Shown: positions 1-18,730, counted from the stretch's first letter. The stretch is 19,839 nucleotides of DNA from a virus (IMGVR_UViG_2778261687_000006:1-19839), one strand, 5' to 3'. Program-made: numbers and translations. The notes: generated by a model from the sequence alone, not told the origin.

Positions 1-195
1 TTAATTATTCTGCTGATTTTCTTCCATCTCTGCTTCTGCTGCCAGTGATTCAATTTTGTCTGCGAATATTGCTGACAGCGTTGCAAATTCAGCATCAGTG
101 ACAGCGGGAATTGGAACAAACCTGATCCCACTATGTGCAAGCATGTTTGCAGTTTCAAGGCATTTCCTTAAATCTGCAGGTGATGCCCTGTTCAT
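1..195 (-). CDS. Hypothetical small phage protein (about 64 aa); start ATG overlaps the stop of the upstream methyltransferase gene (ATGA)
   Basis: ORF track frame 1..315; internal ATG at 193-195 overlaps the TGA of the 192..842 gene, suggesting translational coupling. The longer 315 start would overlap the methyltransferase by about 120 nt. No family recognised. Confidence 0.4.
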   Translation of the reverse strand: MNRASPADLRKCLETANMLAHSGIRFVPIPAVTDAEFATLSAIFADKIESLAAEAEMEENQQNN

Positions 196-842
196 GCTGC
201 ACGCTCCCGTCCCTGGTTGTCTGTTGGTGACAGCGGAGCATTGCTGAATGCATTTGTTAATCCGCCAATATCCAACGCGTATCCTGGGTGTAGTTGCACG
301 GCCGGGTCTTCGCACTGATTACCCCAAACATCGAAGCCATGAGACGACTGGCGGGCGAACAGTTCAATGCGAGAAACATCGCCTAACAATTGCACAAGTT
401 TTTCACGAACGACATCTGGTTTTCTTGAATGCTCAAGCCGCGGTGCGGTAAATGACTGAACGATCCCTGCATTAATGCGCGTAGGTAGTTTTCCCTTAAC
501 TGCAAACAGGCAATCTTCACTATTGGCGCGAGTCATGTGCCCCATACCCATAACCAGTTTATCTGGTTGTCGACTACCACATTTTATCCACGTGAAGCCC
601 TTCATGGTCATCAGACGGAATCCCCAGGCTTCAACAACTTTTAGTGCTTCGAGTGGTTGTGTTGGCACCCACCACATGGCCAACAGACAGTTTTCACCGG
701 CCAAATCCCACACAGGAAGGCGGCAGATATCCAGCACACTCATAACCGGATATTTAAAACCGGCACCGCGATTACCATCTGCGGCTTTGTCCCGGTATAC
801 CCAGGGTGGATCTGCATAGATTAGTGTGTATTTCTTAGTCAT
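192..842 (-). CDS. MT-A70 family DNA N6-adenine methyltransferase (phage orphan methylase)
   Basis: 216 aa ORF with the catalytic DPPW motif in context LIYADPPWVY near the N-terminus, typical of MT-A70/Dam-like phage methyltransferases. No restriction endonuclease partner adjacent. Confidence 0.85.
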   Translation of the reverse strand: MTKKYTLIYADPPWVYRDKAADGNRGAGFKYPVMSVLDICRLPVWDLAGENCLLAMWWVPTQPLEALKVVEAWGFRLMTMKGFTWIKCGSRQPDKLVMGMGHMTRANSEDCLFAVKGKLPTRINAGIVQSFTAPRLEHSRKPDVVREKLVQLLGDVSRIELFARQSSHGFDVWGNQCEDPAVQLHPGYALDIGGLTNAFSNAPLSPTDNQGRERAA

Positions 843-1134
843 AAACCACCCCGCAACATCCTATGCCGCTATAGTCGCCACGGCGAAGGCCGTTACCTTT
901 TGTGATACATTGGTCCCTGCGAACCGCGATCCTTGCACGCTCAACATCACCAGAAGCAACATCCATACACTGAAGCCAAAGGTGGGCAGCAATGCGGAAC
1001 TGCCCTTTTTTCTCTCTTTCAATCGCGCGTTTTTCGATCTCTATCGCCGCAGGAGTAACGGCAACAACCTTTGAAGGGCTGCGCATTGAAACCTTGTTCA
1101 TGTGATATTTTTCAAGTCGGCTTAACTTTCTCAC
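835..1134 (-). CDS. Hypothetical phage protein; start uncertain (GTG 1134, ATG 1101 or ATG 1086)
   Basis: ORF of 99 codons from the GTG; 3' end overlaps the methyltransferase start by 8 nt. AAGG lies 6 nt upstream of the ATG at 1086. No recognisable domain. Confidence 0.4.
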   Translation of the reverse strand: MRKLSRLEKYHMNKVSMRSPSKVVAVTPAAIEIEKRAIEREKKGQFRIAAHLWLQCMDVASGDVERARIAVRRDQCITKGNGLRRGDYSGIGCCGVVYD

Positions 1135-1243
1135 TTAATCCAACCCTCTCTGAAAATTAATGCCAGCAGATAAAGCCATGCTGAAACAGAGGCCAGGAAT
1201 AAGTACCATCCTGACCATTTGCTCCAGAGCCTTAGCAGTACAC

Positions 1244-1492
1244 TCATGCCGCGTTGCTCACAGGACGATATACACGTTGCTGAACAGGAGGTTTTTTACC
1301 CTGGAACTCTGCCGGGCTTGCTGCCTGACGTTCATCAAGCCAACGCTCAACTTCATCACGGTTCCATGCGCAGCGTTTGTCAGTGATATACCAGCGTTTA
1401 GGAAATTCCCCTGCGCGCTCCATACGGTCGATAGTGCTCCATGACAGTGGCACCACCGCCAGGAGTTCCTTCTTACCTAATGCACCTTTCAT
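1244..1492 (-). CDS. AlpA-family phage transcriptional regulator / excisionase-like HTH protein
   Basis: 82 aa; segment LLAVVPLSWSTIDRMERAGEFPKRWYITDKRCAWNRDEVERWL matches the AlpA/Xis-like HTH pattern (helix ... AGEFP ... W..E...W). RBS GAGAGG 6 nt upstream of the ATG. Confidence 0.7.
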   Translation of the reverse strand: MKGALGKKELLAVVPLSWSTIDRMERAGEFPKRWYITDKRCAWNRDEVERWLDERQAASPAEFQGKKPPVQQRVYRPVSNAA

Positions 1493-1541
1493 AAATACCT
1501 CTCTTGGTTGCAGTGCGGCGCGTGTGGCGCCGCGGTGGTGG

Positions 1542-2483
1542 TTACATAGATGTTTCGTTTAATTCTTCCCGACGAACGCTGTAAACGTCGGTGGCTTTTG
1601 CCAGCAGTTCGTCATCATCTGAAAGTTTTTGTGCAATGTATTTGTAAGCCTTATCCAGTTCGGAGACAGTGCTGTAATTCATCGCTGCGCTGGTAAAGGC
1701 CATCAGCATTTCTTCTGGATCACGGCTATCCGATTTACGCGTTTGCTCATCAGGCTTTTTCGCTGGTTTAGCGTTGATCAGACTGTTCATTCCCGCAGCA
1801 GTGGTCGTTTGCGGAGTAATGTCTCGCTCAACGCGCGGTGCCGTTTCCTGTAATTCGTCTGGGGTGTAGACGCCCATGATTACGTCAGGACAGTGCAGGC
1901 GAGACCAGCGTTTTGTCGCAAGGTATGCGAGTTGTTGTTTCGGATCACTGGCCCAAAGTGTGGAGTTTCTTACCTGTGCTTGAGACAGCATTAACTCAAG
2001 CACTCGAGGTTGATCCTCGCCCTTCATGGTTGCCCATACGCGAACACCGCAGCCTTCTTCGTCTTTTAGAGTCCAGCCTGGTGCGATATATGGATTGCCG
2101 TTTTTGGATGTTTTCTCAACAAACTTACCGATCACGCGTTCCCACGGCCCGAACCACTCGTAGTTGATGCGATCTTTTGTTGGCGACATCGTTGAGATAA
2201 CTGCGTTTACTAATTGGGCTTCATAACCTAGCGTGCCGTTCACAACATGGGTTTTCTGAGCCACGGCAAACGGGTTCATTCCCCACTGCGCAGCCTGCAT
2301 TGCCACGGCCATGCAATCAGCTGGTTTCCCGGCGAGGTGCGCCGGTACCGTTACGCGGCTTTGCGCCATTACCTCGGCGAATTTCATCAGTTGGTTCAAG
2401 CCGTCTGGGCTGAAAATAGTTGCAGCAGTTCCAGCGATTGCTGTGTCTACTGGTGCGTTGATGTTTGCGATGTCGTTGCTCAT
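1542..2483 (-). CDS. RecT/Redbeta-superfamily single-strand annealing protein (phage recombinase)
   Basis: About 313 aa from the ATG at 2481-2483, which overlaps the TGA of the upstream exonuclease gene. Motifs WGMNPF and ERDITP resemble the lambda Bet / RecT family as I recall it. Paired with an exonuclease. Confidence 0.8.
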   Translation of the reverse strand: MSNDIANINAPVDTAIAGTAATIFSPDGLNQLMKFAEVMAQSRVTVPAHLAGKPADCMAVAMQAAQWGMNPFAVAQKTHVVNGTLGYEAQLVNAVISTMSPTKDRINYEWFGPWERVIGKFVEKTSKNGNPYIAPGWTLKDEEGCGVRVWATMKGEDQPRVLELMLSQAQVRNSTLWASDPKQQLAYLATKRWSRLHCPDVIMGVYTPDELQETAPRVERDITPQTTTAAGMNSLINAKPAKKPDEQTRKSDSRDPEEMLMAFTSAAMNYSTVSELDKAYKYIAQKLSDDDELLAKATDVYSVRREELNETSM

Positions 2484-3301
2484 ATGTACATATCCTGTTT
2501 GCGTGCCCACTCAGGGCGTTTAATGATTTCCACACCGCCCCATTCATCATTGATGCGGCATTCGTGATAGGTATTCAGATCCCGGCGGAACAGAGCGTGC
2601 CCGGCATCGACATCCTGCGCATCCAGCTCGAACACGCGTACCGGATACCGACCACAATCAATGCTTTCGCTCACGGCAAGAAAGAAAAAACCATGCGGCT
2701 GACCAGTAACCCTCATTGCGCCTTCGCGGTACATTGCGTCCTGCACGTGGTAGCGGAATTCCTCGATGTGGCGTGCAAAACGGTCCATATCTGCAACCTT
2801 TTTCACGTCGACGATCACGTTGTGCTCGTTCAGCCATTTGTCTGGACGAATTCGGCACAACTCACCCGTCTCTTCATCGTTCCAGTACATTGATGCTTCG
2901 CAGTAACCAGGTGCTTCCAACATCCAGCGTGCCGCCGGGTGAGCCATTGCGCTATCACGCATCAGCTCCAGTTTCCGCCACTGCTCGGCATCAAGTACCG
3001 TAATCCCCATATCCGCCACATCACGAAGAAATGCCTCTTCGTCAGCTTTACCTTGTTTCGTCCGACGATCGAATTTCGGTGAAACAATGAAGCGTTTGTC
3101 GAACTCTCTAGGCTCCAGAAGCAGACAGTGCAATGCGGTTCCCATATCCAGTGCAGACTTTTTCTCTTCGTCTTCTGGTGCTGCCTGAACCCATTTAAGA
3201 AGCGCCGGATTCTTGGCAACCATGTCCAGTTGCGACTTACTCACGCCGTCACCGGCGTGGTAGTCCTCATTGCTGATGTCGAAATAGATGCCAGTATTCA
3301 T
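2480..3301 (-). CDS. Phage PD-(D/E)XK exonuclease (YqaJ-like viral recombinase nuclease)
   Basis: 273 aa; N-terminal ISNEDYHAGDGVSKSQLD and a D...E.K-like core (RIRPDKW ... IVDVKKV), typical of YqaJ/lambda-Exo-like nucleases found upstream of RecT. Gene overlaps both neighbours. Confidence 0.8.
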   Translation of the reverse strand: MNTGIYFDISNEDYHAGDGVSKSQLDMVAKNPALLKWVQAAPEDEEKKSALDMGTALHCLLLEPREFDKRFIVSPKFDRRTKQGKADEEAFLRDVADMGITVLDAEQWRKLELMRDSAMAHPAARWMLEAPGYCEASMYWNDEETGELCRIRPDKWLNEHNVIVDVKKVADMDRFARHIEEFRYHVQDAMYREGAMRVTGQPHGFFFLAVSESIDCGRYPVRVFELDAQDVDAGHALFRRDLNTYHECRINDEWGGVEIIKRPEWARKQDMYI

Positions 3302-3504
3302 AACTTAACCTTGTATTCGTTCTGCTTGTTGGAACGGGTTCCATCGTGGAAATATATTGCGCTCCTGGTTACCTCTACCCATTTGCGACGTTCAAGCTCA
3401 GCGATGAACCAAGAAACCTTCGATCTTGAGATACCAAGAATCTTTGCCATATCTCGGATGCTGTGTTTTCCACCTCGCAGCAATGAGAGGAGTGTTGGTT
3501 TCAT
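3298..3504 (-). CDS. Small HTH / winged-helix DNA-binding protein
   Basis: 68 aa; HSIRDMAKILGISRSKVSWFIAELERRKWVEV looks like a helix-turn-helix. Start ATG 3502-3504 overlaps the stop of the upstream gene; stop overlaps the exonuclease start. Confidence 0.5.
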   Translation of the reverse strand: MKPTLLSLLRGGKHSIRDMAKILGISRSKVSWFIAELERRKWVEVTRSAIYFHDGTRSNKQNEYKVKL

Positions 3505-3800
3505 GCCGCGTCCCTCTGCCCATCAAGCTGATCAGCCAGATCCCAGCGGGCGATAATTGCCATTGCCTCGCGCCGGTAGGCATCCATTAGTTCTTCGAAC
3601 TCAGGGCTGTCTTTAGCGGCCTCCAGTACTTCCTGGCGAACGCCTTTAACTGTTACAACGTCGAAAGTTGATGCCAGTTGATGAAGCCGGATACTCTCAA
3701 TCAGTTCAACTTGTCGGTCATATAGCTGTTCTGACAGACGGTAGTCCTTGTCGAATGCCAGCATGATTTTTTGAAGATTTTTCTGCTGATTAACGTTCAT
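3501..3800 (-). CDS. Hypothetical early phage protein (99 aa)
   Basis: ORF in the 3501..3815 frame; preferred start is the ATG at 3798-3800 (MNVNQQ...), preceded by GGAGG at a good spacing. No family recognised. Confidence 0.5.
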   Translation of the reverse strand: MNVNQQKNLQKIMLAFDKDYRLSEQLYDRQVELIESIRLHQLASTFDVVTVKGVRQEVLEAAKDSPEFEELMDAYRREAMAIIARWDLADQLDGQRDAA

Positions 3801-3802
3801 TA

Positions 3803-3955
3803 TCAGCCCTCCCATATCTCGTTATCGTTGGCCACATCGCGAGCTTCTTTGCTGACGAAAGCCCACTTAATGCCTTCCTGTAAGGTGCGGAACTTCCAGC
3901 TCATGAATCCGCATGCAGTAACGCAGTACCAACCGTTGATGATTTTCCACTGCAT
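3803..3955 (-). CDS. Small 50-aa ORF, first gene of the leftward early operon; not in the ORF track
   Basis: Hand translation MQWKIINGWYCVTACGFMSWKFRTLQEGIKWAFVSKEARDVANDNEIWEG; GAGG 9 nt upstream; stop TGA 3803-3805 lies 2 nt from the next start (TGATAATG). Confidence 0.3.
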   Translation of the reverse strand: MQWKIINGWYCVTACGFMSWKFRTLQEGIKWAFVSKEARDVANDNEIWEG

Positions 3956-3974
3956 AACTTGTTACCTCGGTCTG

Positions 3975-3989
3975 TTACCGTTTAGGTAA
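3975..3989. promoter_or_regulatory. Dyad operator-like site TTACCGTTTAGGTAA
   Basis: Inverted half-sites TTACC / GGTAA with a 5-bp spacer, overlapping the start of the leftward transcript. Confidence 0.5.
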
Positions 3990-4017
3990 TAATTATGCGT
4001 ATGTGGTTTGATGTCAA
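3989..4017 (-). promoter_or_regulatory. Candidate leftward early promoter (pL-like): -35 TTGACA at 4012-4017 (minus strand), -10-like TAATTA near 3989-3994
   Basis: Perfect TTGACA on the minus strand, about 16 bp spacer, A/T hexamer; flanked by dyad sites at 3975-3989 and 4037-4051. Confidence 0.4.
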
Positions 4018-4036
4018 TAGATATGAGTTAAAAAAA

Positions 4037-4051
4037 TTACCCGTTAGGTAA
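4037..4051. promoter_or_regulatory. Dyad operator-like site TTACCCGTTAGGTAA
   Basis: Same TTACC-N5-GGTAA dyad, upstream of the pL-like -35. Confidence 0.5.
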
Positions 4052-4060
4052 TCGAATAGG

Positions 4061-4086
4061 CAATAAAAAAGCCGCCATAAGGCGGC
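4061..4086 (-). terminator. Rho-independent terminator for the repressor-like gene
   Basis: On the minus strand: GCCGCC-ttat-GGCGGC hairpin followed by TTTTTTATTG, directly downstream of the stop of the 4109..4693 gene. Confidence 0.7.
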
Positions 4087-4108
4087 TTACTTACTGAAAA
4101 ATATGGTT

Positions 4109-4693
4109 TTATTGTTTGTTTTTTTCGTTCTGGTTGATGACAAATTCAATGTAACTTTCGATCTTTGCTTTCTCGGTTTCGGGTAACAATGCGTAGCGCG
4201 AGCGATCATAGTTGATGGTCGCAGGGTCGTGCGGGTGAATCAGTAATTCATAGCCGTGACGCCCGAATGCGGATGCAACATTCTCCAGGGTGGAAATGGA
4301 AACGCTGACCTCATTGTTTAACAGGCGGCTGATTGTCACCTGGGCGACGCCGGATGCGCGGTGTAGTTTTCCCTGCGTTGAAAGGTCGCGGCTTTCGCTC
4401 ATCCAGCGTTCCAGGTTGTGAGCCGCCAACTGACCAATGTCGCTTGGGCCGACAGGCTGAAAACCTTCCTGAGAAAGCGAGCGATCGATATCAAGCCAGT
4501 TACGGGGTTTATTGGCGGCAGCTTCAATTTTTCGTGCAACCTGGTCGCCGATAACCTTCTTGCCAAGAGCCCAGCGGTTTACCAGATTTGCCTGAGTTCC
4601 AAGTTTTTCAGCCATCCGCGTCTGAACACCATTGAATTCACGGTCGATCAAGTCGTTGAGATTTTGCCTGCGGACGTCCTGGATACTTTTCAT
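4109..4693 (-). CDS. Phage repressor-like protein with two XRE-type HTH domains, no peptidase S24 domain evident
   Basis: 194 aa; two HTH-like segments (TRMAEKLGTQANLVNRWALGKKVIGDQVARKIEAA and LHRASGVAQVTISRLLNNEVSVSISTLENVASAFG). Divergent from a Cro-like gene with operator repeats between. No Ala-Gly/Ser/Lys autocleavage signature seen. Confidence 0.65.
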   Translation of the reverse strand: MKSIQDVRRQNLNDLIDREFNGVQTRMAEKLGTQANLVNRWALGKKVIGDQVARKIEAAANKPRNWLDIDRSLSQEGFQPVGPSDIGQLAAHNLERWMSESRDLSTQGKLHRASGVAQVTISRLLNNEVSVSISTLENVASAFGRHGYELLIHPHDPATINYDRSRYALLPETEKAKIESYIEFVINQNEKNKQ

Positions 4694-4748
4694 TTTCTGG
4701 AAAATCGCCTCATATCTGAATCAGAAGATGATTCAATTTAAAGCAATA

Positions 4749-4822
4749 TTACCCAACAGGTAAATGCACCTCACGGGTAACTATCCTTGATTTTTGTTAC
4801 CTTATAGGTGAATATTTATTAT
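4749..4822. promoter_or_regulatory. Immunity-region operator/promoter cluster: three dyad sites (4749-4763, 4766-4780 degenerate, 4797-4811) and a PR-like promoter (-35 TTGTTA 4794-4799, -10 TATTAT 4817-4822)
   Basis: Three TTACC-N5-GGTAA-type sites spaced about 17-30 bp apart between the divergent genes; the third sits in the spacer of a plus-strand promoter 26 bp upstream of the Cro-like ATG. Confidence 0.5.
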
Positions 4823-4847
4823 CTGAAATAAATATCAGGCAATAGCT

Positions 4848-5078
4848 ATGAGCGATAACGGACATTTCGATTTCAAAAAGCACTGGCTTGCACTTACTCC
4901 GGATGAGCGTGAAGCCTTCGCACAGGAAGCCGGAACGACGAGTCACTATATCCAGACTCACTTAACAGGTAAGCGCAAAATGCCAGGTAAGGTATTGATG
5001 GATGGGCTTTTTAAAGCCTGTAAATCAAGACAATGGCTGCGCTCAAAAGCAGAACTGGCATACTTCTTCTACTCATGA
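4848..5078 (+). CDS. Cro-like small HTH regulator
   Basis: 76 aa, divergent from the repressor-like gene; HTH-like segment TPDEREAFAQEAGTTSHYIQTHLTGKRKMP; followed directly by an intrinsic terminator. Confidence 0.55.
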   Translation: MSDNGHFDFKKHWLALTPDEREAFAQEAGTTSHYIQTHLTGKRKMPGKVLMDGLFKACKSRQWLRSKAELAYFFYS

Positions 5079-5100
5079 TATCCAGCCACAACCCTCTGTA

Positions 5101-5122
5101 GACCGCCATCCGGCGGTCTTTT
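5101..5122 (+). terminator. Rho-independent terminator after the Cro-like gene
   Basis: GACCGCC-atcc-GGCGGTC hairpin followed by TTTT. Confidence 0.6.
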
Positions 5123-5133
5123 CATATCTATTC

Positions 5134-5148
5134 GTACCTCAAAGGTAA
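5134..5148. promoter_or_regulatory. Dyad operator-like site GTACCTCAAAGGTAA
   Basis: TTACC-N5-GGTAA family member just after the Cro terminator; an ATATGGTT box follows at 5160-5167. Confidence 0.45.
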
Positions 5149-5161
5149 TAAAAAACCAAAT

Positions 5162-5422
5162 ATGGTTGATCTTTTTTTTGTGTCAGCACAAAATAACCGT
5201 AATCCCAATACCAATAACAGGGCTTACCATGGAAATCATTACACGTATTTCGCTGTGATGCTCGCCACCGGAGAGATGGAACTGCACGAAGTGAAAGGTT
5301 TCTGGACCGACGACGCCAGGGTGAAAACCAAAGTCGCCGCAGATCAGTATCCGTTCCGAATCATCGGGGTAACGGTTAAACCAAAGAAAGCAGGTGGTGG
5401 CTGGAACATCGAAGAGTTCTGA
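5162..5422 (+). CDS. Hypothetical small protein; start codon uncertain (ATG 5162, or internal ATGs giving about 48-55 aa)
   Basis: ORF track entry; the first ATG lies inside the conserved ATATGGTT box and lacks an RBS. Coding status doubtful. Confidence 0.3.
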   Translation: MVDLFFVSAQNNRNPNTNNRAYHGNHYTYFAVMLATGEMELHEVKGFWTDDARVKTKVAADQYPFRIIGVTVKPKKAGGGWNIEEF

Positions 5423-5483
5423 ATCGACGATCTTTTTAGTTATCAATGTAATCAATAAGTTATGTGGATAAGCGAGGGTAAAG

Positions 5484-6197
5484 ATGGAAAGTAATATCAA
5501 AGGGTTAGTTTCCGCCGGGCATGAGATGGCTTCGGAACTGAAAGCAGAATGTGGTGCCGTTGATATGCGCAGTGTGGCAAAGCTGATCAGCGATTTGGCA
5601 ACGCAACTGGAAGTGCAACTGGTGCGTGCTAATGCGCTGGCCGAAGACCACCAGAGAGCCATTGAGTCAATTAAACAGGCTGATTCGGCTGTTAAGTTGG
5701 CACACGAGAAGTTTTCGGCGCTGGCTGCGGAGAATGCAAGACTGAAGGCCGGGGCTATGTATTTCTCATATGGCTCTGAATTTAGTTTCGAGTGTCACAA
5801 AACTGCTGAGGAGGCTATCGCTGCTGCTGAGGCTGCAATTGACGACTATAGAGGCGATGCTTGCGATGGATGGAGCGAAGAGGTCGAAAGCATTTGCTGG
5901 GGGGTAATTATTCAGCAGGCAACCAAGGTCGGTGAACGCAAGAAGAGGAAATGCGACAGAGTATCACCATGGATTGAAAGAGTTTGTGATTATGAGCTTC
6001 GACCTAATGTCGAAACCCCAGCCACCGATGCTTTCCTTGCTGAAGTTCGGGCGCAGGGGGTGGATATGGCTCGTAACGCGATGATTGATTTTGTTGATGG
6101 TGAAGTTGGGCCAAACAAGAACGTTCCGGGGCTGATTAGAGGCGCAGAGATATGCGTAAGTATTGCTGAACAGCTTCGCAAAGGAGGCAACCAGTGA
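5484..6197 (+). CDS. Hypothetical phage early protein with coiled-coil N-terminus (possibly Ea22-like)
   Basis: 237 aa; RBS GAGGG before the ATG; heptad-like Ala/Glu-rich N-terminal region; stop overlaps the start of the next gene. Confidence 0.55.
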   Translation: MESNIKGLVSAGHEMASELKAECGAVDMRSVAKLISDLATQLEVQLVRANALAEDHQRAIESIKQADSAVKLAHEKFSALAAENARLKAGAMYFSYGSEFSFECHKTAEEAIAAAEAAIDDYRGDACDGWSEEVESICWGVIIQQATKVGERKKRKCDRVSPWIERVCDYELRPNVETPATDAFLAEVRAQGVDMARNAMIDFVDGEVGPNKNVPGLIRGAEICVSIAEQLRKGGNQ

Positions 6198-6613
6198 GCG
6201 AAATTAATTACCAGGCACTGCGTGAGGCGGCGGAACGTGCAATTCCAGCAATGGAACGCCTGTTAATGTTGCCAGCTGATGATGATTTGTTAAGTGAACA
6301 GGAACTTAAAGATTACGGTGTGGATATTGATGCGCTCAACGCCTTCAAATTTCTGGCCGGACCAGAAACCGTGCTGGCACTACTGGATGAACGGGAAAGG
6401 AACCAGCAATACATCAAATCCCGCGATCAGGAGAACGAGGATATTGCGCTAACGGTTGGGAGGCTGCTAATCGAAAACGGCCGGCTTGTTGCCGATACGC
6501 TACGCCACTTAGCTGATAACGAAATCGACTCTGATTATTTTGCTATCACCTCAACGAATGAGAACGGTACTGAAATTGATCATGAGATGGCTATTACTGA
6601 GCCGCCAGGATGA
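6194..6613 (+). CDS. Ead/Ea22-like family phage protein (recollection-based assignment)
   Basis: 139 aa; GTG start with strong RBS AAGGAGG 6 nt upstream; N-terminus MSEINYQALREAAERA and VLALLDERERNQQ resemble lambdoid Ea22-like proteins as I remember them. Confidence 0.55.
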   Translation: MSEINYQALREAAERAIPAMERLLMLPADDDLLSEQELKDYGVDIDALNAFKFLAGPETVLALLDERERNQQYIKSRDQENEDIALTVGRLLIENGRLVADTLRHLADNEIDSDYFAITSTNENGTEIDHEMAITEPPG

Positions 6614-6761
6614 TGCACGTGTGCGCTGGCGTATAAAATCGATCAGCAGAAAACGGTGCGGTAAGTGCGGCGAGAGAGTTCCTGTTAATTCATGCCCGTG
6701 TAATGGTGACTCGCAATGCTGGGTGAATAAAGGCTGGCATGAAACGAAATTAATAGTGTGA
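6540..6761 (+). CDS. Possible small Cys-rich (zinc-ribbon-like) protein; coding status uncertain
   Basis: ORF overlaps the 3' end of the previous gene in another frame; C-terminal CGKCGERVPVNSCPCNGDSQCW has CxxC ... CxC spacing. Its stop codon lies inside the GTGACATGTCAC palindrome. Confidence 0.25.
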   Translation: MLSPQRMRTVLKLIMRWLLLSRQDDARVRWRIKSISRKRCGKCGERVPVNSCPCNGDSQCWVNKGWHETKLIV

Positions 6762-6769
6762 CATGTCAC
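6758..6769. repeat. Perfect 12-bp palindrome GTGACATGTCAC, copy 1
   Basis: Read directly; overlaps the stop codon of the 6540..6761 ORF, upstream of the terS terminator. Confidence 0.9.
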
Positions 6770-6810
6770 GAGTAGATTATGCATGATGAATTTGATGGGT
6801 TTTGAATACT

Positions 6811-6837
6811 GCCGCCAACTATGGCGGCTTTATTTTG
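6811..6837 (+). terminator. Terminator-like hairpin upstream of terS
   Basis: GCCGCC-aactat-GGCGGC followed by TTTATTTTG; same stem sequence as the 4061-4086 terminator. Confidence 0.5.
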
Positions 6838-6843
6838 CATGGT

Positions 6844-6872
6844 ACTATTACCACAACGGTAACTATTACCAC
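6844..6872 (+). repeat. Tandem direct repeat ACTATTACCAC (6844-6854 and 6862-6872) immediately upstream of terS
   Basis: GGTACTATTACCACAACGGTAACTATTACCACGG read directly; includes an inverted GGTAA-cta-TTACC arrangement. Confidence 0.8.
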
Positions 6873-6879
6873 GGTGGTT

Positions 6880-10838: not shown

Positions 10839-10928
10839 TAATTTGCGCATTAAATGTCAACTGTCTACGACAAGTAAATCATATGTGGTTAAATTGGTGA
10901 TAATTTAATTGCGTACGGAGTCATTGAT

Positions 10929-11186: not shown

Positions 11187-11279
11187 CGGCTGGCGAATTC
11201 ACTGCTGGTATCAGTCTTGATGTTGATGCCAATACGCCGTATCCGATCCGCTCAAAAGTAACTGGTTAAGGTGATATCG

Positions 11280-11630
11280 ATGTCAGGTGAGAAACCAAGA
11301 TACCGCGTTCTGCGCCTCTCTCATATCCATAACACTCTGTGGCCGGAGGGGGCAGAAATCGAATACGAAGGTGAGCCTGGTAGCGCACTGGAACCTGTTA
11401 ACGATGCAGCCAGACAGGCAAAAGCAAAGGTAGCAGGAAAGGTGTCAATGGCAGCAACCAGTACCAAAATCATCAACGATGTGTCAGATGATGGTGAGCT
11501 GGATAAGCTCCGTGAAGAGTACGAATTGCTCTTTAACGAGAAGCCACACCATAACGCCAAAGCCGAAACGCTCCGCGAGAAGATCGCAGATAACCGGTTC
11601 TGGTATTCAGCGTGGAACATGGAAAGGTGA
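11280..11630 (+). CDS. Hypothetical protein (116 aa)
   Basis: ATG at 11280 with RBS GGTGA 6 nt upstream; acidic, helical-looking sequence. The +1 frame stays open across its last 150 nt. Confidence 0.5.
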   Translation: MSGEKPRYRVLRLSHIHNTLWPEGAEIEYEGEPGSALEPVNDAARQAKAKVAGKVSMAATSTKIINDVSDDGELDKLREEYELLFNEKPHHNAKAETLREKIADNRFWYSAWNMER

Positions 11631-11679
11631 ATTAACGAGAAGTGTTTTCCTGTTTAAATCGTTCCCTATCTCGGTGGTT

Positions 11680-12240
11680 ATGCGTCACTGGTCACGCGCT
11701 ATGGGTATGCCGTCTGCTGGTGGGCGTGCGGCATATATTGCGACGTTTATTGCCAGTACGACCATTCTTGGAGCTTTGTCGCAGCAACTTAACGACCTTG
11801 CGTCTGGTCGTAATCCTCGCGAGATGACAGGAGAAGATGCCGCAAAATTCTGGCTTGGTGCTCTATTGAAAGGTGGTGGTCTTGGCCTTTACGGTGACTT
11901 TTTATTGTCAGATCACACTAGGTACGGAAGCGGCGCGCTGGCGTCGATGCTTGGCCCGGTGGCTGGTCTGGTTGATGACGTAGTGAAGATTGCTCAGGGC
12001 ATACCGTTAAATGCTGTGGAAGGGAAGAGTGAGCAGACTGGTGGTGATCTGGTGAAGCTGGGGAAAGGTTTGATGCCAGGTGCGAATCTCTGGTACTTGA
12101 AGGCGGCTCTCGATCACATGATCTTTAACCAGATGCAGGAGTATTTTTCACCAGGCTATTTGCGTAAAATGGAGCAACGTTCGAAGAAAGAGTTTAACCA
12201 GACATACTGGTGGCGACCTCAGGATGTCACTCCGCAATAA
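11680..12240 (+). CDS. Hypothetical protein with Gly-rich hydrophobic segments; start poorly defined (ATG 11680 or GTG 11674), possible frameshift fusion with the upstream ORF
   Basis: Long open frame 11479..12240, protein-like only after about 11640; no well-spaced RBS at the candidate starts. Confidence 0.45.
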   Translation: MRHWSRAMGMPSAGGRAAYIATFIASTTILGALSQQLNDLASGRNPREMTGEDAAKFWLGALLKGGGLGLYGDFLLSDHTRYGSGALASMLGPVAGLVDDVVKIAQGIPLNAVEGKSEQTGGDLVKLGKGLMPGANLWYLKAALDHMIFNQMQEYFSPGYLRKMEQRSKKEFNQTYWWRPQDVTPQ

Positions 12241-12249
12241 GGATGAGAA

Positions 12250-12390
12250 ATGATTGCTTTTATTCTTGTTGTATTTGTGCTTGTTGCCCTTGGCGTTATG
12301 AATCGTAAATGTATCATTGAAGACGGTGAATTTGCTGTAGCAGTTGTTTTGATATTATCTGGTGTAGCAGGGTACATAGGTTTGTCATAG
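12250..12390 (+). CDS. Small hydrophobic peptide (46 aa, two predicted membrane segments); not in the ORF track
   Basis: Hand translation MIAFILVVFVLVALGVMNRKCIIEDGEFAVAVVLILSGVAGYIGLS; RBS AGGA upstream; stop TAG at 12388-12390. Confidence 0.35.
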   Translation: MIAFILVVFVLVALGVMNRKCIIEDGEFAVAVVLILSGVAGYIGLS

Positions 12391-12397
12391 CTTGAGT

Positions 12398-12409
12398 GTG
12401 ACATGTCAC
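12398..12409. repeat. Perfect 12-bp palindrome GTGACATGTCAC, copy 3 (extended form TGTGACATGTCACA)
   Basis: Read directly; in the convergent gap between the 12250..12390 ORF and the 12434..12691 gene. Confidence 0.9.
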
Positions 12410-12433
12410 AGGCCGCTTTCGCGGCCCTTAAAT

Positions 12434-12691
12434 TTACCGGATTTGTTTTCGTAATTGTTCGGCACAATAGTCGAGATGTGTTTGCAGATCCTGCATAGAC
12501 ATCTGTGAGCTGGTGACGTAGTTAATCAGTGCAGTCAGTTCGGCAAGTGGGCCATCGACATTAAATCCATCCTTATCGAGATCCCGGAGTAATTTCATCA
12601 AGTGCGATCCCTCCACCAGTGACCTGACGCCTCCCGGCGTGTGAATCCTTTCGGTAAATCCGTCTTCCAGTGGATAGTGATACTGCTGCAT
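12434..12691 (-). CDS. Hypothetical protein (85 aa from the ATG at 12691)
   Basis: ORF track 12434..12757 with a GTG at 12757; the internal ATG at 12689-12691 has GGAG about 8 nt upstream. Divergent from the tailspike gene. Confidence 0.45.
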   Translation of the reverse strand: MQQYHYPLEDGFTERIHTPGGVRSLVEGSHLMKLLRDLDKDGFNVDGPLAELTALINYVTSSQMSMQDLQTHLDYCAEQLRKQIR

Positions 12692-12767
12692 CTTATCTTC
12701 TCCATGCAATAACTGTATATTTATGCAGTAGCAAATAATTTGTTTGCTATCCAGCACGTTTTGCGAA

Positions 12768-12782
12768 TCACCTGAAAGGTAA
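12768..12782. promoter_or_regulatory. Dyad operator-like site TCACCTGAAAGGTAA
   Basis: In the divergent intergenic region between the 12434..12691 gene and the tailspike gene; followed by the ATCCATATGTGGTT box (12809-12822) and a -10-like TAGAAT (12833-12838). Confidence 0.45.
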
Positions 12783-12886
12783 TATCTGTTCGTATTTATG
12801 GTTTATCTATCCATATGTGGTTTTTCAGGTAATAGAATAACCGGATATGCGGCGCAACGGGTGCTGCGACTATCTGGAGATTTAAC

Positions 12887-15571
12887 ATGACGGTCTCAAC
12901 CGAAGTTGACCATAACGAATATACAGGTAATGGCGTTACGACTTCATTTCCTTATACCTTTCGAATTTTTCAGAAGTCAGACCTGGTTGTGCAGGTTGTT
13001 GATCTGGATGAAAATATAACCACTCTTGTGCTTGATACTGATTATTCGATTACAGGTACTGGTGGATACACGGGGGGGAATGTTGTTTTATCAACTGCTT
13101 TAGGCAATGGGTATAAGATTTCTATTTCAAGAGAGTTGCCGGTTACCCAAGAAACAGACCTAAGGAACCAGGGGAAGTTTTTTGCAGAAGTGCATGAGGA
13201 TGCATTTGATAAGTTAACTATGCTTGTTCAGCAGGTAAGAAGTTGGTTTAGTCTGTCGTTAAGAAAACCATCCTTTGTAGCCAACTATTATGACGCCCTG
13301 GGCAACTATATCAGAAATCTCAGGGATCCATCTCGGCCGCAAGATGCTGCTACAAAGAACTATGTAGACAGTATTTCTGAAACCAATCTCAACAGAACGC
13401 TAAGAACACCTGAACCTATACCCACACTTCCATCTGCCGCTGTCAGGGCGAACAAGATAATAGCCTTCGATAATAGTGGGTCTCCTTTTGTAACATTGCC
13501 GCCATCTGGTTCTGCCACTGATGTTCTTGTTGAATTAGTGAAACCAACAGGTGCCGGGTTATCAGGTTATAGCGATTCTATCCAGTATCCTGACGGTACT
13601 GTTGGTAGTGCCATTAAAGATCAGAATTTCAGGAAAAAAATAATCTACAAACTTCCATTTCAGTTCGCTGGGTATTCTGATGCACTGGCGGCAATTGGAG
13701 CTGGAAGCATCATATACCCGCAGGGTGCTGACTATGATGATGATGGTCTACTCTTCATTAACTATGTGCCTAATGCTGGAGGGGCGCTTAGGGTTATAGT
13801 TGTTTATAACCAGGCAGGAGAGCAAGTAACGTGGTTTTATAGTCCAAACAGTAGTAATCAGTCTGTGGCTATATATGGCGGAAGTTCATCACGTAGATTG
13901 TATGACAGACGTCTTGGGGATGATTTTGTTTATTATTATGACATAACCACATTACCCGCAGCAGGTAGCACGCTTTCAGGGCACACAATAACGACAATTC
14001 AGTCGGCTGGATCACATATGTGCATTGAGGGTAATTTACTCTTCTGCACATTAAACGCGACACCAGTAGGATTGTCACAATCACAGACTGTTATAAATTC
14101 TTATCGTCTTGATACAGGTGAGAAGCAGGGAACAATAAATGTCTCTCAGATGCTTACAGGGTTTGCAACTCCAGAGCTCTCCCCTACCTACTATTACATG
14201 GTATGGAAAATTCAGGGTATAGCATACAAAAATGGGATCCTTCATATAGGCGTAGGTGGCAGTTATCGTCCTACATTTGATGATGCAAAATACCCTGTTC
14301 ATGATTACGGAGTCCTCAGAGTGTCACTCTCTGGTGAGTTAATAGACCACTCTGTTGTGAAATCAGATAAGTTGATGACTTATCTGGCATCAAACGGTTG
14401 CACCGTCTCAAGAACAGAGTCAGAGGGATGTTTCAAGCACCCTGACGGCACTATCCATTCAATTCTTATCGGTGATATGGCTGAATCATCTCCTAGCACA
14501 CCCAATGGCATTGTTATAATGAGGGAGTTTTCAAGAGATGGGTTTGACATGCTGGATGCCGCTTCAGGATACTGCCCGATACCAACATATGGATTTAATA
14601 GGCTCATGCGTTCGGAGCATGGGGAACTGCGCGATCCAGTCTTAAATACAGTCTTCAGCAGTGTTACTCAAATTCTTGATTTAATGGCTTCATTAAACAT
14701 AACTGAGTTCTCTTGGTTTTCAACCATTGCTCCTTCGCTCACCACGATACCTGGTCTTAACTACGTAATAGGACAAATTTACCATGTTACTAATATGAAC
14801 AATGCAGGATTCATTATTGAATCCTCCGGTACTGTACTTGGGCTAGAAATTTATTCCGTAGTTGGCAGAATTGGGTCATGGACAGCTACAAGGCGCTCAT
14901 TGTCAGGAACAAAGCTTAATATTAATAATTCAGGTGGTTTAGGCAAAATATCATTTACAACGTCAACAGGAAAAGAAGTTGGCATCGCTCAAATAAACTA
15001 TACCGGAACCTCTACGCCTCTTGTTATCGGCTCAGGGGGTACTTTAAACCCTAATGCTATTTTCTTCTTCACAAATCCGACAGTGACAAGTGAAAGTGGT
15101 GGGACTCAATCTCTTCAGATTTACAGTGATCAGGTATTGCCTGGCGTCGCTAGCGCGCAGTCTAACGGGAGTGCATCATTTAAATGGACTCAGGTCTACG
15201 CCGATTCTGGTTCCATTAACACATCTGACAGAAGAAAGAAGACAGATTTCGAGGATATAAGTGAAGCCGAAAAGCGTGTGGCTATCAAGATTAAGGGAAT
15301 GATTTGTCGGTACAGAATGAAGGATGCGGTAGCTATTAAAGGCGATGGCGCAAGATATCATATAGGTGCAATTGTCCAGGATGTTATCTCTGCGTTCGAG
15401 GATGAAGGGCTAGATCCCATGCGTTATGGGATGGTTTGCTACGATAAGTGGGATAAGAAGGAACCAGAATATGATGAAAATGGAATCATGACATTCTCAG
15501 GTTGCGAAGCTGGTGATGGTTACTCTTTGAGATATGATGAGATGTTATGTTTCATTATTTCTGCTATTTAA
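12887..15571 (+). CDS. Tailspike / tail fibre protein with C-terminal intramolecular chaperone (peptidase S74-like self-cleaving domain)
   Basis: 894 aa; N-terminus MTVSTEVDHNEYTGNGVTTSFPYTFRIF resembles the T7-gp17-type particle-binding domain and, from memory, epsilon15-like tailspikes; Ser/Thr/Gly-rich central region; C-terminal ...INTSDRRKKTDFEDISEAEKRVAIKIK... matches the endosialidase-type chaperone domain. RBS GGAG. Confidence 0.85.
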   Translation: MTVSTEVDHNEYTGNGVTTSFPYTFRIFQKSDLVVQVVDLDENITTLVLDTDYSITGTGGYTGGNVVLSTALGNGYKISISRELPVTQETDLRNQGKFFAEVHEDAFDKLTMLVQQVRSWFSLSLRKPSFVANYYDALGNYIRNLRDPSRPQDAATKNYVDSISETNLNRTLRTPEPIPTLPSAAVRANKIIAFDNSGSPFVTLPPSGSATDVLVELVKPTGAGLSGYSDSIQYPDGTVGSAIKDQNFRKKIIYKLPFQFAGYSDALAAIGAGSIIYPQGADYDDDGLLFINYVPNAGGALRVIVVYNQAGEQVTWFYSPNSSNQSVAIYGGSSSRRLYDRRLGDDFVYYYDITTLPAAGSTLSGHTITTIQSAGSHMCIEGNLLFCTLNATPVGLSQSQTVINSYRLDTGEKQGTINVSQMLTGFATPELSPTYYYMVWKIQGIAYKNGILHIGVGGSYRPTFDDAKYPVHDYGVLRVSLSGELIDHSVVKSDKLMTYLASNGCTVSRTESEGCFKHPDGTIHSILIGDMAESSPSTPNGIVIMREFSRDGFDMLDAASGYCPIPTYGFNRLMRSEHGELRDPVLNTVFSSVTQILDLMASLNITEFSWFSTIAPSLTTIPGLNYVIGQIYHVTNMNNAGFIIESSGTVLGLEIYSVVGRIGSWTATRRSLSGTKLNINNSGGLGKISFTTSTGKEVGIAQINYTGTSTPLVIGSGGTLNPNAIFFFTNPTVTSESGGTQSLQIYSDQVLPGVASAQSNGSASFKWTQVYADSGSINTSDRRKKTDFEDISEAEKRVAIKIKGMICRYRMKDAVAIKGDGARYHIGAIVQDVISAFEDEGLDPMRYGMVCYDKWDKKEPEYDENGIMTFSGCEAGDGYSLRYDEMLCFIISAI

Positions 15572-15576
15572 AAAAT

Positions 15577-15600
15577 GCCCCGTAGAGGGGCTTTTTTTTT
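15577..15600. terminator. Bidirectional rho-independent terminator shared by the tailspike and acyltransferase genes
   Basis: GCCCC-gtaga-GGGGC hairpin flanked by AAAAA upstream and TTTTTTTTT downstream. Confidence 0.75.
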
Positions 15601-16588
15601 ACTTGGCTATCACCCTATTTAACAAAGGAGTTTTTGAAAGTATCACAGCTATCAACAGGGACGCAAAGACATAAAATATAGTTGCAACAGGTATTCCCCA
15701 TGCATAATTTGATACTGGAGCTATTTTCCATGTTATAAATATAATAATAGGATGTATAAGATAAATTCCAAATGCATATTCGGAAATTAGAGTTACAAGT
15801 TTATTTGCATTTTTGCTTATTCTGTCTGCGTATCCAATGCAGGCGCAGGTTGTTGCTATTGCTGTCATGCCAACAATGGGGCTAAAGTTGCTTAGGTTTA
15901 CTCCTTTGATCCCATGAATCAATATAGCCTTATTTGTAAAGACACATATAACCGCAAGGATAACAGCAGTTAACGAAATGAAAGCGCGTAATTTTATGAT
16001 ATGGCTTTCAAGTCGTGCAACTATACATCCGGCAAAAATATAGAACATTAATGTACTTACAAATGGAATATCTATAGATGGTGCATTAGGAATAAAATTC
16101 TTTAGTTGTGGGTATAAAGAATTTCCATAGAATAGAATTAAAAATATCATCACGTTATACCGCAAATCCATGCGTTGGCATCCAATAATTATCATCGGGA
16201 GAAACATGTAAATCGCAATATAATGATACATAAACCATAGATGAACAGCAGATGGCTTCATGATATTAAAGCTGCTTACTGAAGTATCTTTAAATATAAT
16301 GTAATAAGATGCATATATTACCCACCAAAATACAAGAGGGACAAATAAGACATTAAAACCCTTTTTAATGTAATCATGGAATTCGAATTCCTTTTTATGG
16401 TAGTAAAGAAACCCTGTTATAACTATGAAAATACCAATGCATTGCTTTGATATGGCGCTATATACGTTAGCCCAATCCCAATCAGGCGAAGACTTTGCAC
16501 CAACTGGACCAGCGGCAACATGCAGCAACACCACCAGCACAATGGCGATGAAACGAGCTAAAACTACGCCATAGTTCTTCTCATTCAT
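15599..16588 (-). CDS. Acyltransferase family 3 integral membrane protein, likely O-antigen acetyltransferase (lysogenic conversion)
   Basis: 329 aa, about 10 hydrophobic segments; N-terminal VLARFIAIVLVVLLHVAAG matches the acyltransferase-3 signature (R-x-x-x-H in TM1); visibly AT-rich; sits directly after the tailspike gene as serotype-converting acetylases do in P22-like/Sf6-like phages. Confidence 0.8.
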   Translation of the reverse strand: MNEKNYGVVLARFIAIVLVVLLHVAAGPVGAKSSPDWDWANVYSAISKQCIGIFIVITGFLYYHKKEFEFHDYIKKGFNVLFVPLVFWWVIYASYYIIFKDTSVSSFNIMKPSAVHLWFMYHYIAIYMFLPMIIIGCQRMDLRYNVMIFLILFYGNSLYPQLKNFIPNAPSIDIPFVSTLMFYIFAGCIVARLESHIIKLRAFISLTAVILAVICVFTNKAILIHGIKGVNLSNFSPIVGMTAIATTCACIGYADRISKNANKLVTLISEYAFGIYLIHPIIIFITWKIAPVSNYAWGIPVATIFYVFASLLIAVILSKTPLLNRVIAK

Positions 16589-16641
16589 TTTAATATTTAT
16601 CCAATATTTTTAATGGGTTCCACAATCATTAACTACAATAT

Positions 16642-16656
16642 ATACCCATAAGGTAA
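16642..16656. promoter_or_regulatory. Dyad operator-like site ATACCCATAAGGTAA
   Basis: Between the acyltransferase and lysis genes; followed by ATCCATATATGGTT (16685-16699) and a -10-like TATGAT (16706-16711). Confidence 0.45.
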
Positions 16657-16752
16657 TTTAGTTAAGAGTTATCAGAGGTAAACTTATCCATATATGGTTT
16701 ATTGTGTATGATGGACTTACCAACTAAGGGGGTTCATTATGCACAGTAAACG

Positions 16753-17166
16753 GTGGCTGATATGTCAGCTCAGCTAACCAGTGAGTCTTTAAATCAGTGG
16801 CTTAGCATGGGTTCTCTGGCTGCTGTCATTGTCGGGGTTCCTCCAGAGGTCGCTCTTGGTGCTTTATCCGGCGCGGTAATATTTATTACCTCTGCCGTTG
16901 AGTATCCAATACGCCGTCGGGTTCTCCTATCGATGCTCAGCTTTCTCTGCGGGCTACTCTTCTACAAACCGACTGCATCAATTCTTATCGGCGTAGCCAG
17001 CATGATCCCAACTATCACGCAGGACTCATTCGAGAAAGGGATCGTCTTTTCTGCTGGCGCGTTCGTGTCGGCAATAGTCGCAGTACGTATTGGAATCTGG
17101 CTCTATCACCGCTCAGACAATCCACGCGATTTAATCCCTGGGAGAAAAGACGATGACAACTCATGA
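16753..17166 (+). CDS. Holin-like membrane protein (about 3 TM segments, charged C-terminus); start uncertain (GTG 16753 or ATG 16762)
   Basis: First gene of the lysis cassette; hydrophobic segments and C-terminal [19 protein letters not shown] strong SD AAGGGGG (16725-16732) is positioned for an ATG at 16739 in another frame (12-codon ORF). Confidence 0.5.
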   Translation: MADMSAQLTSESLNQWLSMGSLAAVIVGVPPEVALGALSGAVIFITSAVEYPIRRRVLLSMLSFLCGLLFYKPTASILIGVASMIPTITQDSFEKGIVFSAGAFVSAIVAVRIGIWLYHRSDNPRDLIPGRKDDDNS

Positions 17167-17461
17167 TCTGCTTTTACTTATTGCCAATGCAGTTATTTGT
17201 ACTGGCATAGCAATTCGCGTTGTCACATTCCGGCGTAACGGATCTCAACATCGAAGATGGGGAGGGTGGCTTGCTTATTTCCTTATTGTTGCTGCGGCCA
17301 GTATTCCTGTTCGTGTCGTCTATGCAATCTGGTTACGCACGCCAATGGCTGTGGATTTATCTGAGGTTATTATCAACGCTGTCATGCTTGCCGCTGTTAT
17401 TAAAACACACGGTAACGTTGTTCAGATTTTCAAAATATCGAGGTCTAAACATGGAGATTAA
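17153..17461 (+). CDS. Second holin/antiholin-like small membrane protein
   Basis: 102 aa with three hydrophobic segments; RBS GGGAG; overlaps both neighbours, immediately upstream of the endolysin. Confidence 0.5.
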
Positions 17462-18080
17462 ACAATTCCAGCGAGCTGCTGGTATTAGCGAGGCGCTGGC
17501 CGCACGCTGGTTCTCGCATATAACTTCTGCGATGAAAGAGTTTGGTATCAGAAAACCCGAAGATCAGGCAATGTTTATTGCTCAGGTCGGGCATGAGTCT
17601 GGAGGCTTCACCCGGTTGCAGGAGAATTTCAACTACAGCGTAACTGGACTGGCTAACTTCGTTCGGGCTGGGCGTCTCACTCAGGGACAGGCCAACGCAT
17701 TGGGGCGACGCGCAGGAGAACCACCATTGCCACTTGAGCGCCAGAGAGCGATTGCCAATCTGGTGTACAGCAAACGCATGGGGAACAATGCCCCCGGCGA
17801 TGGCTGGAATTACCGAGGTCGCGGACTTATCCAGATTACCGGTTTGAATAACTATCGTGACTGCGGAAACGGCTTGAAAGTTGACTTGCTGGAGAATCCT
17901 GAACTGCTGGCGCAGGACGAATACGCGGCTCGTAGCGCGGCGTGGTTCTTCTCCAGCAAAGGTTGCATGAAGTATACAGGCGATATTGCACGTGTAACTC
18001 TGATTATCAATGGTGGCCGGAACGGCATCGACGACCGGCGCGCGCGGTACATCACTGCCAGTAAGGTGCTGGCGGTATGA
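17451..18080 (+). CDS. Endolysin, glycoside hydrolase family 19 (chitinase-like lysozyme)
   Basis: 209 aa from the ATG at 17451 (RBS GAGG); GHESGGF catalytic region and [16 protein letters not shown] matching the GH19 signature; located between holin-like and spanin genes. Confidence 0.85.
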
Positions 18081-18574
18081 TCTGGGCATTCGCAAAAGCA
18101 TACAGGAAACAGTTGGTTATCATGGTGATGCTTGCTGTTCTGGTCATATCAGGAGTTGTAGCTTGGAATGCACACGGCAGTCGTCAGTACGACGCCGGGT
18201 ATGCGCAGGCACAGGAAGATCAGAAACAGGCTAATGATAAGGCCAGGTCACAACGTGATCAGGAGAAAACACAAATTGAACGTGAAGCACAATCCCGTAT
18301 CGATGTGGCGCGTGTTGATGCTGAGCATGCTAATGCCGCTGCTGACAGCCTGCGCGCCGAGCTTGACAAAACCAAGCGACTCGCCGAACACTATACCGGA
18401 TCTTTCCCCACTGGCACGCCAGCCAGCAAGGTCATCGGTGTGCTCGCCGACATGCTTGAAGAAAGCAATCGAGTTTACAACGCAACAGCAGCTGAGGCTG
18501 AAAAGTATCGGATTGCAGGAGAATCCTGCGAACAGCAATACGATTCACTGAAGAAGCAAAAATCGTGGTACTGA
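18077..18574 (+). CDS. Rz-like i-spanin
   Basis: 165 aa; N-terminal TM ([18 protein letters not shown]) followed by a charged coiled-coil periplasmic domain; start overlaps the endolysin stop (ATGA). Confidence 0.7.
18303..18551 (+). CDS. Rz1-like o-spanin lipoprotein, embedded in the +1 frame of the Rz gene
   Basis: Embedded ORF with signal [17 protein letters not shown] (lipobox LTAC) and a Pro-rich mature region ([25 protein letters not shown]). Start codon choice uncertain (18303, 18318 or 18333). Confidence 0.5.
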   Translation: MWRVLMLSMLMPLLTACAPSLTKPSDSPNTIPDLSPLARQPARSSVCSPTCLKKAIEFTTQQQLRLKSIGLQENPANSNTIH

Positions 18575-18704
18575 TTTCCGGTGACGGTATATAAAACGGT
18601 ACTAGAAAAATTAAGTTTTGGAAAAATGTTATCACTCAATTGGTTATGATTGTCGTAAATAATTGAGTGGGAATGATTTGACCCTGCACTATGAATGAAC
18701 AAAA

Positions 18705-18730
18705 CCCTCTGTTACTACAGAGGGTTTTTT
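18705..18730. terminator. Bidirectional rho-independent terminator after the lysis cassette
   Basis: CCCTCTGT-tact-ACAGAGGG hairpin followed by TTTTTT, preceded by AAAA on the other side. Confidence 0.7.

Follow-up and report, generated by a model that had tools for sequence, protein, structure and literature searches.

A guaA-integrated Uetakevirus prophage of Escherichia coli, very probably defective, with five base-resolved deletion junctions

Uetakevirus phages, among them phiV10, epsilon15, vB_EcoP_ZX5 and phiv142-3, are the closest described relatives of the element that fills most of IMGVR_UViG_2778261687_000006:1-19839, the 19,839-nucleotide stretch analysed here (the window; positions given without another name are window positions). 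The published attP/attB core of phiV10, epsilon15 and ZX5 is exactly ATTGAGTGGGAATGATT (PMC9782041). Annotated relatives follow an invariant layout that runs from guaA and the integrase through the DUF1382, MT-A70 methylase, PerC, AlpA, RecT, nuclease and repressor/cro genes to the DnaT-like and P replication genes, accessory genes, terS, terL, a moron slot and tRNA-Arg, and then from portal through p20, p24, the tailspike gene, oac where present, the holins, endolysin and Rz to the host genes yfgI and yfgH. Searching with the whole window (megablast) returned phiV10, vB_EcoP_ZX5, phiv142-3 and other Uetakevirus phages at 95-97% identity, and related prophages in about one-tenth of complete Escherichia coli genomes, at up to 8 places per genome.

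The element shares with these four phages the gene order, the 17-bp core at the guaA 3' end and the tRNA-Arg, and with phiV10 and its relatives the tailspike N-terminal domain and the position and orientation of oac. It differs from phiV10 in lacking positions 33227-35319 of that genome (replication genes) and 3500-18684 (portal through most of p20) except for islands of 67 and 467 bp, and in having another tailspike receptor-binding part, an acyltransferase of only 26% identity and an extra moron after terL. The complete virion module (portal, protease, major capsid protein (MCP), tail hub and ejection proteins) is absent, 10 genes being gone and 4 fragmentary, and we therefore regard the element as a defective derivative and not a functional Uetakevirus. 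The features that define a defective prophage are all found: phage ancestry, five mapped deletion junctions, loss of essential genes and bounding attachment (att) sites. With a probability of roughly 0.93, the window comprises nearly all of a cryptic, defective Uetakevirus prophage (phiV10/epsilon15/ZX5 type) inserted at the guaA 3' end in E. coli, an ordinary example of a familiar process in an established phage genus, and neither a satellite nor a new type of element.

The 17-bp core ATTGAGTGGGAATGATT occurs at both ends, as attL on the guaA stop codon and as attR near the right end of the window, so the element is fully bounded.
18662-18678, unstranded: attR core ATTGAGTGGGAATGATT, the same as attL and as the published attP
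18769-19839, minus strand: host genes yfgI and yfgH, outside the element (annotated relatives and comparison with JML285)
Position 1 lies 3 nt past the integrase gene, and the right end of the window falls inside yfgH. The left flank (guaB, guaA and an intact integrase) was seen in a Logan assembly 100% identical to the window over 18.9 kb; the integrase is an intact P4-type tyrosine integrase of 418 aa with Arm-DNA-bind_3, Phage_int_M and Phage_integrase domains. Only integrase and guaA adjoin the window on the left and only yfgI and yfgH on the right, with no portal, coat or tail genes on either side, and this chromosomal site (guaA-int ... Rz-yfgI) is common to the element and full-length prophages. 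Spanning guaA to position 18678, the element measures about 20 kb, and functional relatives measure 39-40 kb. A first-pass annotation, made from the window sequence alone, had placed the integrase and attachment sites outside the window, which is right for the integrase and attL and wrong for attR; it had also carried the element to 18730 with open boundaries, where the phage in fact ends at 18678 and an integrase adjoins position 1.

Alignments with phiV10 (NC_007804) and with the full-length JML285 and E47 prophages served to map the deletions. By BLAST, all retained segments are colinear with phiV10. Nucleotide identity is 95-99.6% for the remnants and for the early, immunity and terminase segments; the lysis segment and that of the tailspike N-terminus match at 83-85%. 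BLAST breaks and base-level alignments resolve five clean, base-precise junctions (J1-J5), each with 3-8 bp of microhomology. Three of them lie between the tRNA and the intact genes that precede the tailspike.
8950-9690, minus strand: AT-rich moron, 246 aa, matching phrog_4780 (no assigned function), with two N-terminal hydrophobic segments and a long coiled coil
9850-10221, minus strand: Gp49/Sf6 gp66-family gene, phiV10 p03 (Pfam PF13876)
10425-10501, minus strand: tRNA-Arg(UCU), kept in all relatives (ARAGORN, Rfam)
10929-11072, plus strand: p06 remnant, the N-terminal 48 codons of a small gene upstream of portal (phrog_831 positions 3-50/70), ending at J2
11069-11072, unstranded: J2, microhomology GCTT, joining phiV10 3500 to 3883; p06 end and portal start gone
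11069-11135, plus strand: portal island between J2 and J3, 67 bp, about residues 103-128/559 (26 aa; PHROG positions 102-130/560)
11130-11135, unstranded: J3, microhomology CTGCCG, joining phiV10 3949 to 7599; remaining portal through most of the cement protein gone
11130-11596, plus strand: 467-bp island with the C-terminus of a Bbp16-like cement protein and p12 (106/111 aa), 99.6% identical to phiV10 7599-8065 (phrog_590), ending at J4
11589-11596, unstranded: J4, microhomology GATAAnCG, joining phiV10 8065 to 18684; p12 end through most of p20 gone
11589-12240, plus strand: C-terminal quarter of virion protein p20 (about 226/824 aa; phrog_684 positions 608-831/840; tblastn query residues 599-824)
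12250-12390, plus strand: p21 small membrane protein, intact (tblastn, JML285)
12434-12691, minus strand: p24 homologue, intact (phrog_450; 100% aa identity to JML285)

Together J2, J3 and J4 removed 15.2 kb of morphogenesis genes. Profile searches (Pfam, PHROGs) of 8950-12886 found no intact structural gene, and the longest open reading frames (ORFs) there are the 246-aa moron and a 253-aa ORF that represents only the C-terminal 27% of p20. When the JML285 prophage proteins were used as tblastn queries, Bbp19, the protease, MCP, staple and connector left no trace, and neither did tail proteins p15, p16, p17, p18 and p19. The first-pass annotation had described terL as followed by an AT-rich gene, a tRNA and short frame-disrupted ORFs, with nothing of portal or capsid size between 8950 and 12886, and this description holds; by PHROG and tblastn matches the short ORFs correspond to incomplete p06, portal, cement protein, p12 and p20, so that the interval 10929-12240 contains structural fragments only. 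Its suggestion of a degraded prophage that had lost its morphogenesis block was right, and the deletion can now be placed to the base by alignment with phages and prophages. As a pattern, J2-J4 (4, 6 and 8 bp of microhomology around 67-bp and 467-bp islands) is more typical of one serial template switch than of three separate deletions.

The remaining two junctions remove replication and regulatory genes, and the former is a loss beyond the morphogenesis block that the earlier annotation had missed.
5247-5249, unstranded: J1, microhomology ATT, joining phiV10 33227 to 35319; 2.1 kb gone
5162-5422, plus strand: J1 fusion ORF carrying the C-terminal half of the DUF1064 protein (C-terminal matches to phrog_18669 and phrog_190; tblastn query residues 58-114)
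6597-6600, unstranded: J5, about 4 bp of microhomology, from the middle of an Ea22-like gene to the middle of a p55-like gene; mapped on AHB12, not phiV10
6594-6761, plus strand: C-terminal half of a p55-like 'transcriptional regulator' without its own start codon (phrog_536 positions 59-114/115; tblastn query residues 58-112)
J1 leads from the beginning of p42 straight into the interior of the DUF1064 gene: of p42 only the first 21 nt are left, the DUF1064 gene has lost half its length, and the DnaT-like initiator and the P-like loader are gone altogether; tblastn with the JML285 proteins found no trace of the DnaT-like and P-like replication genes or p42 in the window. At J5, about 2 kb of accessory genes are gone relative to strain AHB12, and the p55-like remnant sits directly upstream of terS. 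The full-length p55-like protein matched no family in Pfam or NCBIfam. Should it be the activator of the late genes, the terminase, tailspike and lysis genes that survive may not be transcribed. In JML285, the p55-like gene (18197-18535 of its locus) has an internal stop and a pseudogene flag from the annotation pipeline PGAP, and because of that stop the apparently complete JML285 prophage may be impaired too.

By tblastn, the proteins still encoded match their counterparts in the full-length JML285 prophage at 99-100% identity, and at the nucleotide level JML285 and the window agree at 99.75% over 11589-19839 (8.25 kb) and at 99.4% over 1-3301. This near-identity to a full-length prophage indicates that the loss is recent, and because of it the intact state of terS, terL, the tailspike gene, oac and the lysis genes would be explained by recency alone. 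The variant is also rare. Exact look-ups in a very large assembly collection placed the junction-spanning ORFs on just 2-4 contigs, the carriers being one NCBI draft and Logan SRR3988171, plus SRR21141495 for J1, whose product is on four contigs, one of them from a second sequencing run; the J4 ORF was matched as a 116-aa form, its start differing among gene callers. A BLAST search of 5426 complete E. coli genomes found not one that covers this region. Searches with 28-34-mers gave no match for J2 and J4 in IMG/VR and none for J4 in Joint Genome Institute (JGI) metagenomes; as a control, a 32-mer from intact p12 was present on at least 119 contigs of IMG/VR, most of them about 40 kb long. The deletion variant is thus essentially private to a few isolates.

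Cryptic prophages as such are familiar in this host: Rac, DLP12, Qin and e14 of E. coli K-12 are integrated lambdoid remnants in which morphogenesis genes are missing and int, recombination genes (RecET in Rac), immunity genes or lysis genes survive. The K-12 remnants are ancient, widely fixed and heavily eroded, whereas the element is recent, present in few isolates and made of genes nearly identical to those of a full-length prophage. Closer parallels are EC24, E100341 and YDC107_2, which belong to the same family and site, have partly or wholly lost the head/tail block and, like the element, retain int, early genes, tailspike and lysis. The EC24 deletion extends from the tRNA to a point midway through p18, that of E100341 leaves a single portal'-'p20 fusion, and both keep the replication genes; YDC107_2, listed as a 'phage', is an 18.6-kb remnant. 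Since their breakpoints differ from those of the element, these are independent, different deletions of the same block. A census gave about 517 genomes with full terL, about 518 with the full portal-MCP block and about 27 with partial blocks only; the terL and portal-MCP lists were not matched per genome, and the frequency of head-less derivatives is approximate only. Prophage decay of this kind is a recurrent minority state.

Several considerations weigh against decay as the whole account: the intactness of all retained genes could in principle reflect selection and not recency, a co-resident helper may be present in the source genome, and the case is one drawn from sequence. Selection is the core of the idea that the deletions are decay and the remnant is domesticated, with oac, repressor, tRNA, lysis genes and tailspike kept for host benefit. 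Possible benefits are O-antigen-based phage resistance, immunity and lysis-driven release of vesicles or enzymes; superinfection is known to be blocked by the Oac of phiV10 (PMC11854483), defective prophages are reported to have lysis modules that can serve the host (PMC7918800), and all surviving genes are full length. We nevertheless consider domestication unlikely, for these genes hardly differ from their counterparts in the full-length prophage, leaving too little time for visible selection, the variant is confined to few isolates, and truncation of the upstream regulator makes late-gene expression doubtful. That the block only seems to be missing, because the prophage region was collapsed or mis-joined in assembly, is scarcely credible. 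Multicopy prophage families can confuse short-read assemblers, and relatives here sit at as many as eight places in a genome, but the same sequence, 100% identical over 18.9 kb, stands in the independently built Logan assembly, the four contigs with the J1 product include one from another sequencing run, and the junctions are microhomology joins in unique sequence and not repeat collapses.

The first-pass annotation had also offered a satellite-like element bringing its own packaging specificity and receptor-binding protein, that is, a helper-dependent element that keeps int, att, terS/terL and tailspike to be packaged into, and to retarget, the capsid of a helper Uetakevirus. Like the P4-like satellites, the phage-inducible chromosomal islands (PICIs) and the capsid-forming PICIs (cfPICIs), the element is small and has an integrase with an AlpA-type gene and terS. 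Integrase, AlpA-like gene and both att cores are intact, as are terS/terL and the particle-binding N-terminal domain of the tailspike; the pac signal is probably retained, provided that it sits within or close to terS like that of other headful phages, and about 20 kb is half of a helper genome. The known satellites differ, however, in having a primase/replicase with its own origin, helper-sensing or capsid-redirecting genes and a conserved lineage, and every gene of the element is of helper type at 95-100% identity. Its phage replication genes were deleted without replacement, and no primase, replicase or helicase domain appeared in any ORF searched (Pfam, PHROGs, NCBIfam). The terS product is 100%, that of terL 99% and the tailspike about 100% identical to those of the full-length prophage, which leaves no separate specificity. 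Called ORFs contained no capsid-redirection genes (Pfam, PHROGs, NCBIfam, PADLOC), no family matched the P4-like set psu/delta/sid/epsilon/alpha, every gene searched being phiV10-type or a moron, and no cfPICI-type capsid genes are present in the element. The junctions cut reading frames and leave gene debris, are private to the few contigs given above with none in complete genomes, IMG/VR or JGI metagenomes, and are replaced by different random breakpoints in other strains. A satellite is accordingly highly improbable, having failed on replication module, packaging specificity, redirection genes and lineage.

A further argument of the earlier annotation was that lysis genes following tailspike and conversion gene, in place of preceding terS as in P22-like genomes, were anomalous. 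With their genomes permuted at attP, phiV10 and epsilon15 natively show this same order, tailspike-oac-lysis-att, which is standard for Uetakevirus and makes the comparison with P22 irrelevant. The individual genes that it named, from RecT, nuclease and repressor/cro through terS/terL to tailspike, acetyltransferase and lysis cassette, were all borne out by Pfam/PHROG matches. Those of the left arm and the packaging module are as follows.
1-195, minus strand: DUF1382 gene, the first prophage gene past the integrase (100% aa identity to the JML285 homologue)
192-842, minus strand: MT-A70 DNA adenine methyltransferase (Pfam PF05063; PADLOC MTase_II)
835-1134, minus strand: PerC-family regulator (Pfam PF06069)
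1244-1492, minus strand: AlpA-type helix-turn-helix protein, putative excisionase or regulator (Pfam PF05930)
1542-2483, minus strand: RecT recombinase (Pfam PF03837; 100% aa identity to JML285)
2480-3301, minus strand: RecE-like PD-(D/E)XK nuclease (Pfam PF12684)
4109-4693, minus strand: CI-type repressor (HTH_3; 100% aa identity to the JML285 repressor)
4848-5078, plus strand: cro-like early gene, phiV10 p41 homologue (phiV10 alignment, tblastn)
5484-6613, plus strand: two eae/Ea22-like accessory genes, the second cut at J5 (profile matches)
6802-7476, plus strand: terminase small subunit terS, intact (Pfam PF03592, Terminase_2; 100% aa identity to JML285)
7473-8948, plus strand: terminase large subunit terL, intact (phrog_2; 99% aa identity to JML285 over 491 aa)
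The JML285 repressor has RefSeq accession WP_000836290.1, which is also given to the EC24 and E47 repressors. In the early-left operon, a 68-aa MarR-like winged-helix gene (3298-3504, minus strand) is present in E47 too and not in phiV10, EC24 or JML285; it is mosaic accessory content and not a deletion. The slot between terL and the tRNA is likewise variable, other relatives holding different genes there. The gene for the moron at 8950-9690 is found in the same slot of the full-length E47 prophage and in the UTME-9/10/12/14 prophages, and 41 contigs encode the identical protein. Beyond its PHROG it gave only weak coiled-coil matches to SMC, LmuB and JetC, judged noise, and it may be an exclusion or abortive-infection gene. 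A scan for non-coding RNAs with Rfam found the tRNA alone.

On the right arm, the tailspike and acyltransferase genes form a unit that sets the element apart from phiV10, and the lysis genes follow.
12887-15571, plus strand: tailspike, 894 aa, intact (phrog_1640, phrog_1171, PF13884; about 100% aa identity to JML285 over the full length, a rounded BLAST figure)
15599-16588, minus strand: Acyl_transf_3 O-antigen acyltransferase in the oac position, intact (PF01757; exact protein in JML285)
16762-18574, plus strand: lysis cassette (100% aa identity to JML285), comprising the next five genes
16762-17166, plus strand: holin-like gene (profile match)
17153-17461, plus strand: holin (profile match)
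17451-18080, plus strand: GH19 endolysin (profile match)
18077-18574, plus strand: Rz (profile match)
about 18303-18551, plus strand: Rz1 embedded in Rz (lipobox LLTAC)
The tailspike combines an epsilon15-type N-terminal domain with a Peptidase_S74 chaperone, and the acyltransferase aligns with phiV10 Oac at 26% identity (E 2e-18). From 13422 to 16640, covering the tailspike receptor-binding part and the acyltransferase, there is no nucleotide similarity to phiV10, and both JML285 and E47 carry the same pair. This is consistent with the two having been exchanged together as a serotype-specific tailspike-Oac cassette for an O antigen other than O157. The guaA prophage of JML285 (NZ_AP024114) has in common with the element the tailspike, the Oac and the lysis proteins, and that of E47 (NZ_CP121151) the moron after terL; unlike the element, both keep complete replication and morphogenesis blocks. 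In the E47 prophage, the nearest full-length relative to share the moron, ISKox3 (ISL3 family) lies between p24 and the tailspike gene (35060-36280 of the E47 locus), and the alignment blocks that flank it overlap by 9 bases (12717-12725), consistent with a short target-site duplication.

As to origin, an ancestor of about 40 kb, very close to the full-length JML285 and E47 prophages, would have been reduced to about 20 kb by RecA-independent illegitimate recombination at microhomologies of 3-8 bp. One deletion would have taken the replication initiator and helicase-loader genes, another the accessory genes together with half of the small regulatory gene that precedes terS, and three colinear junctions 15 kb from portal to most of p20; the last three, J2-J4, may be a single serial template-switching event. 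The surviving genes would simply be those outside the breakpoints. As its gene content predicts, the element should be unable to replicate or to build particles. Repressor immunity, DNA adenine methylation and tRNA-Arg(UCU) probably persist, and O-antigen acylation probably does as well. Excision could be possible, with int, the AlpA-like gene and both att cores intact. That the remnant is mobilisable, by excision and, when a related Uetakevirus of the same terminase/pac specificity superinfects, by packaging or RecET-mediated rescue, is very unlikely. If it were, it would disseminate its serotype cassette of tailspike and Oac or initiate lateral transduction of chromosomal DNA on the yfgI side, and the element would be an incipient satellite just after its birth by deletion.

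The proper label is a defective Uetakevirus prophage, which carries little weight beyond annotation. Its minor value is as a clean, base-resolved case of multi-junction microhomology deletion in a prophage, and as a reminder that the tailspike-oac-lysis-att order is native to the genus.

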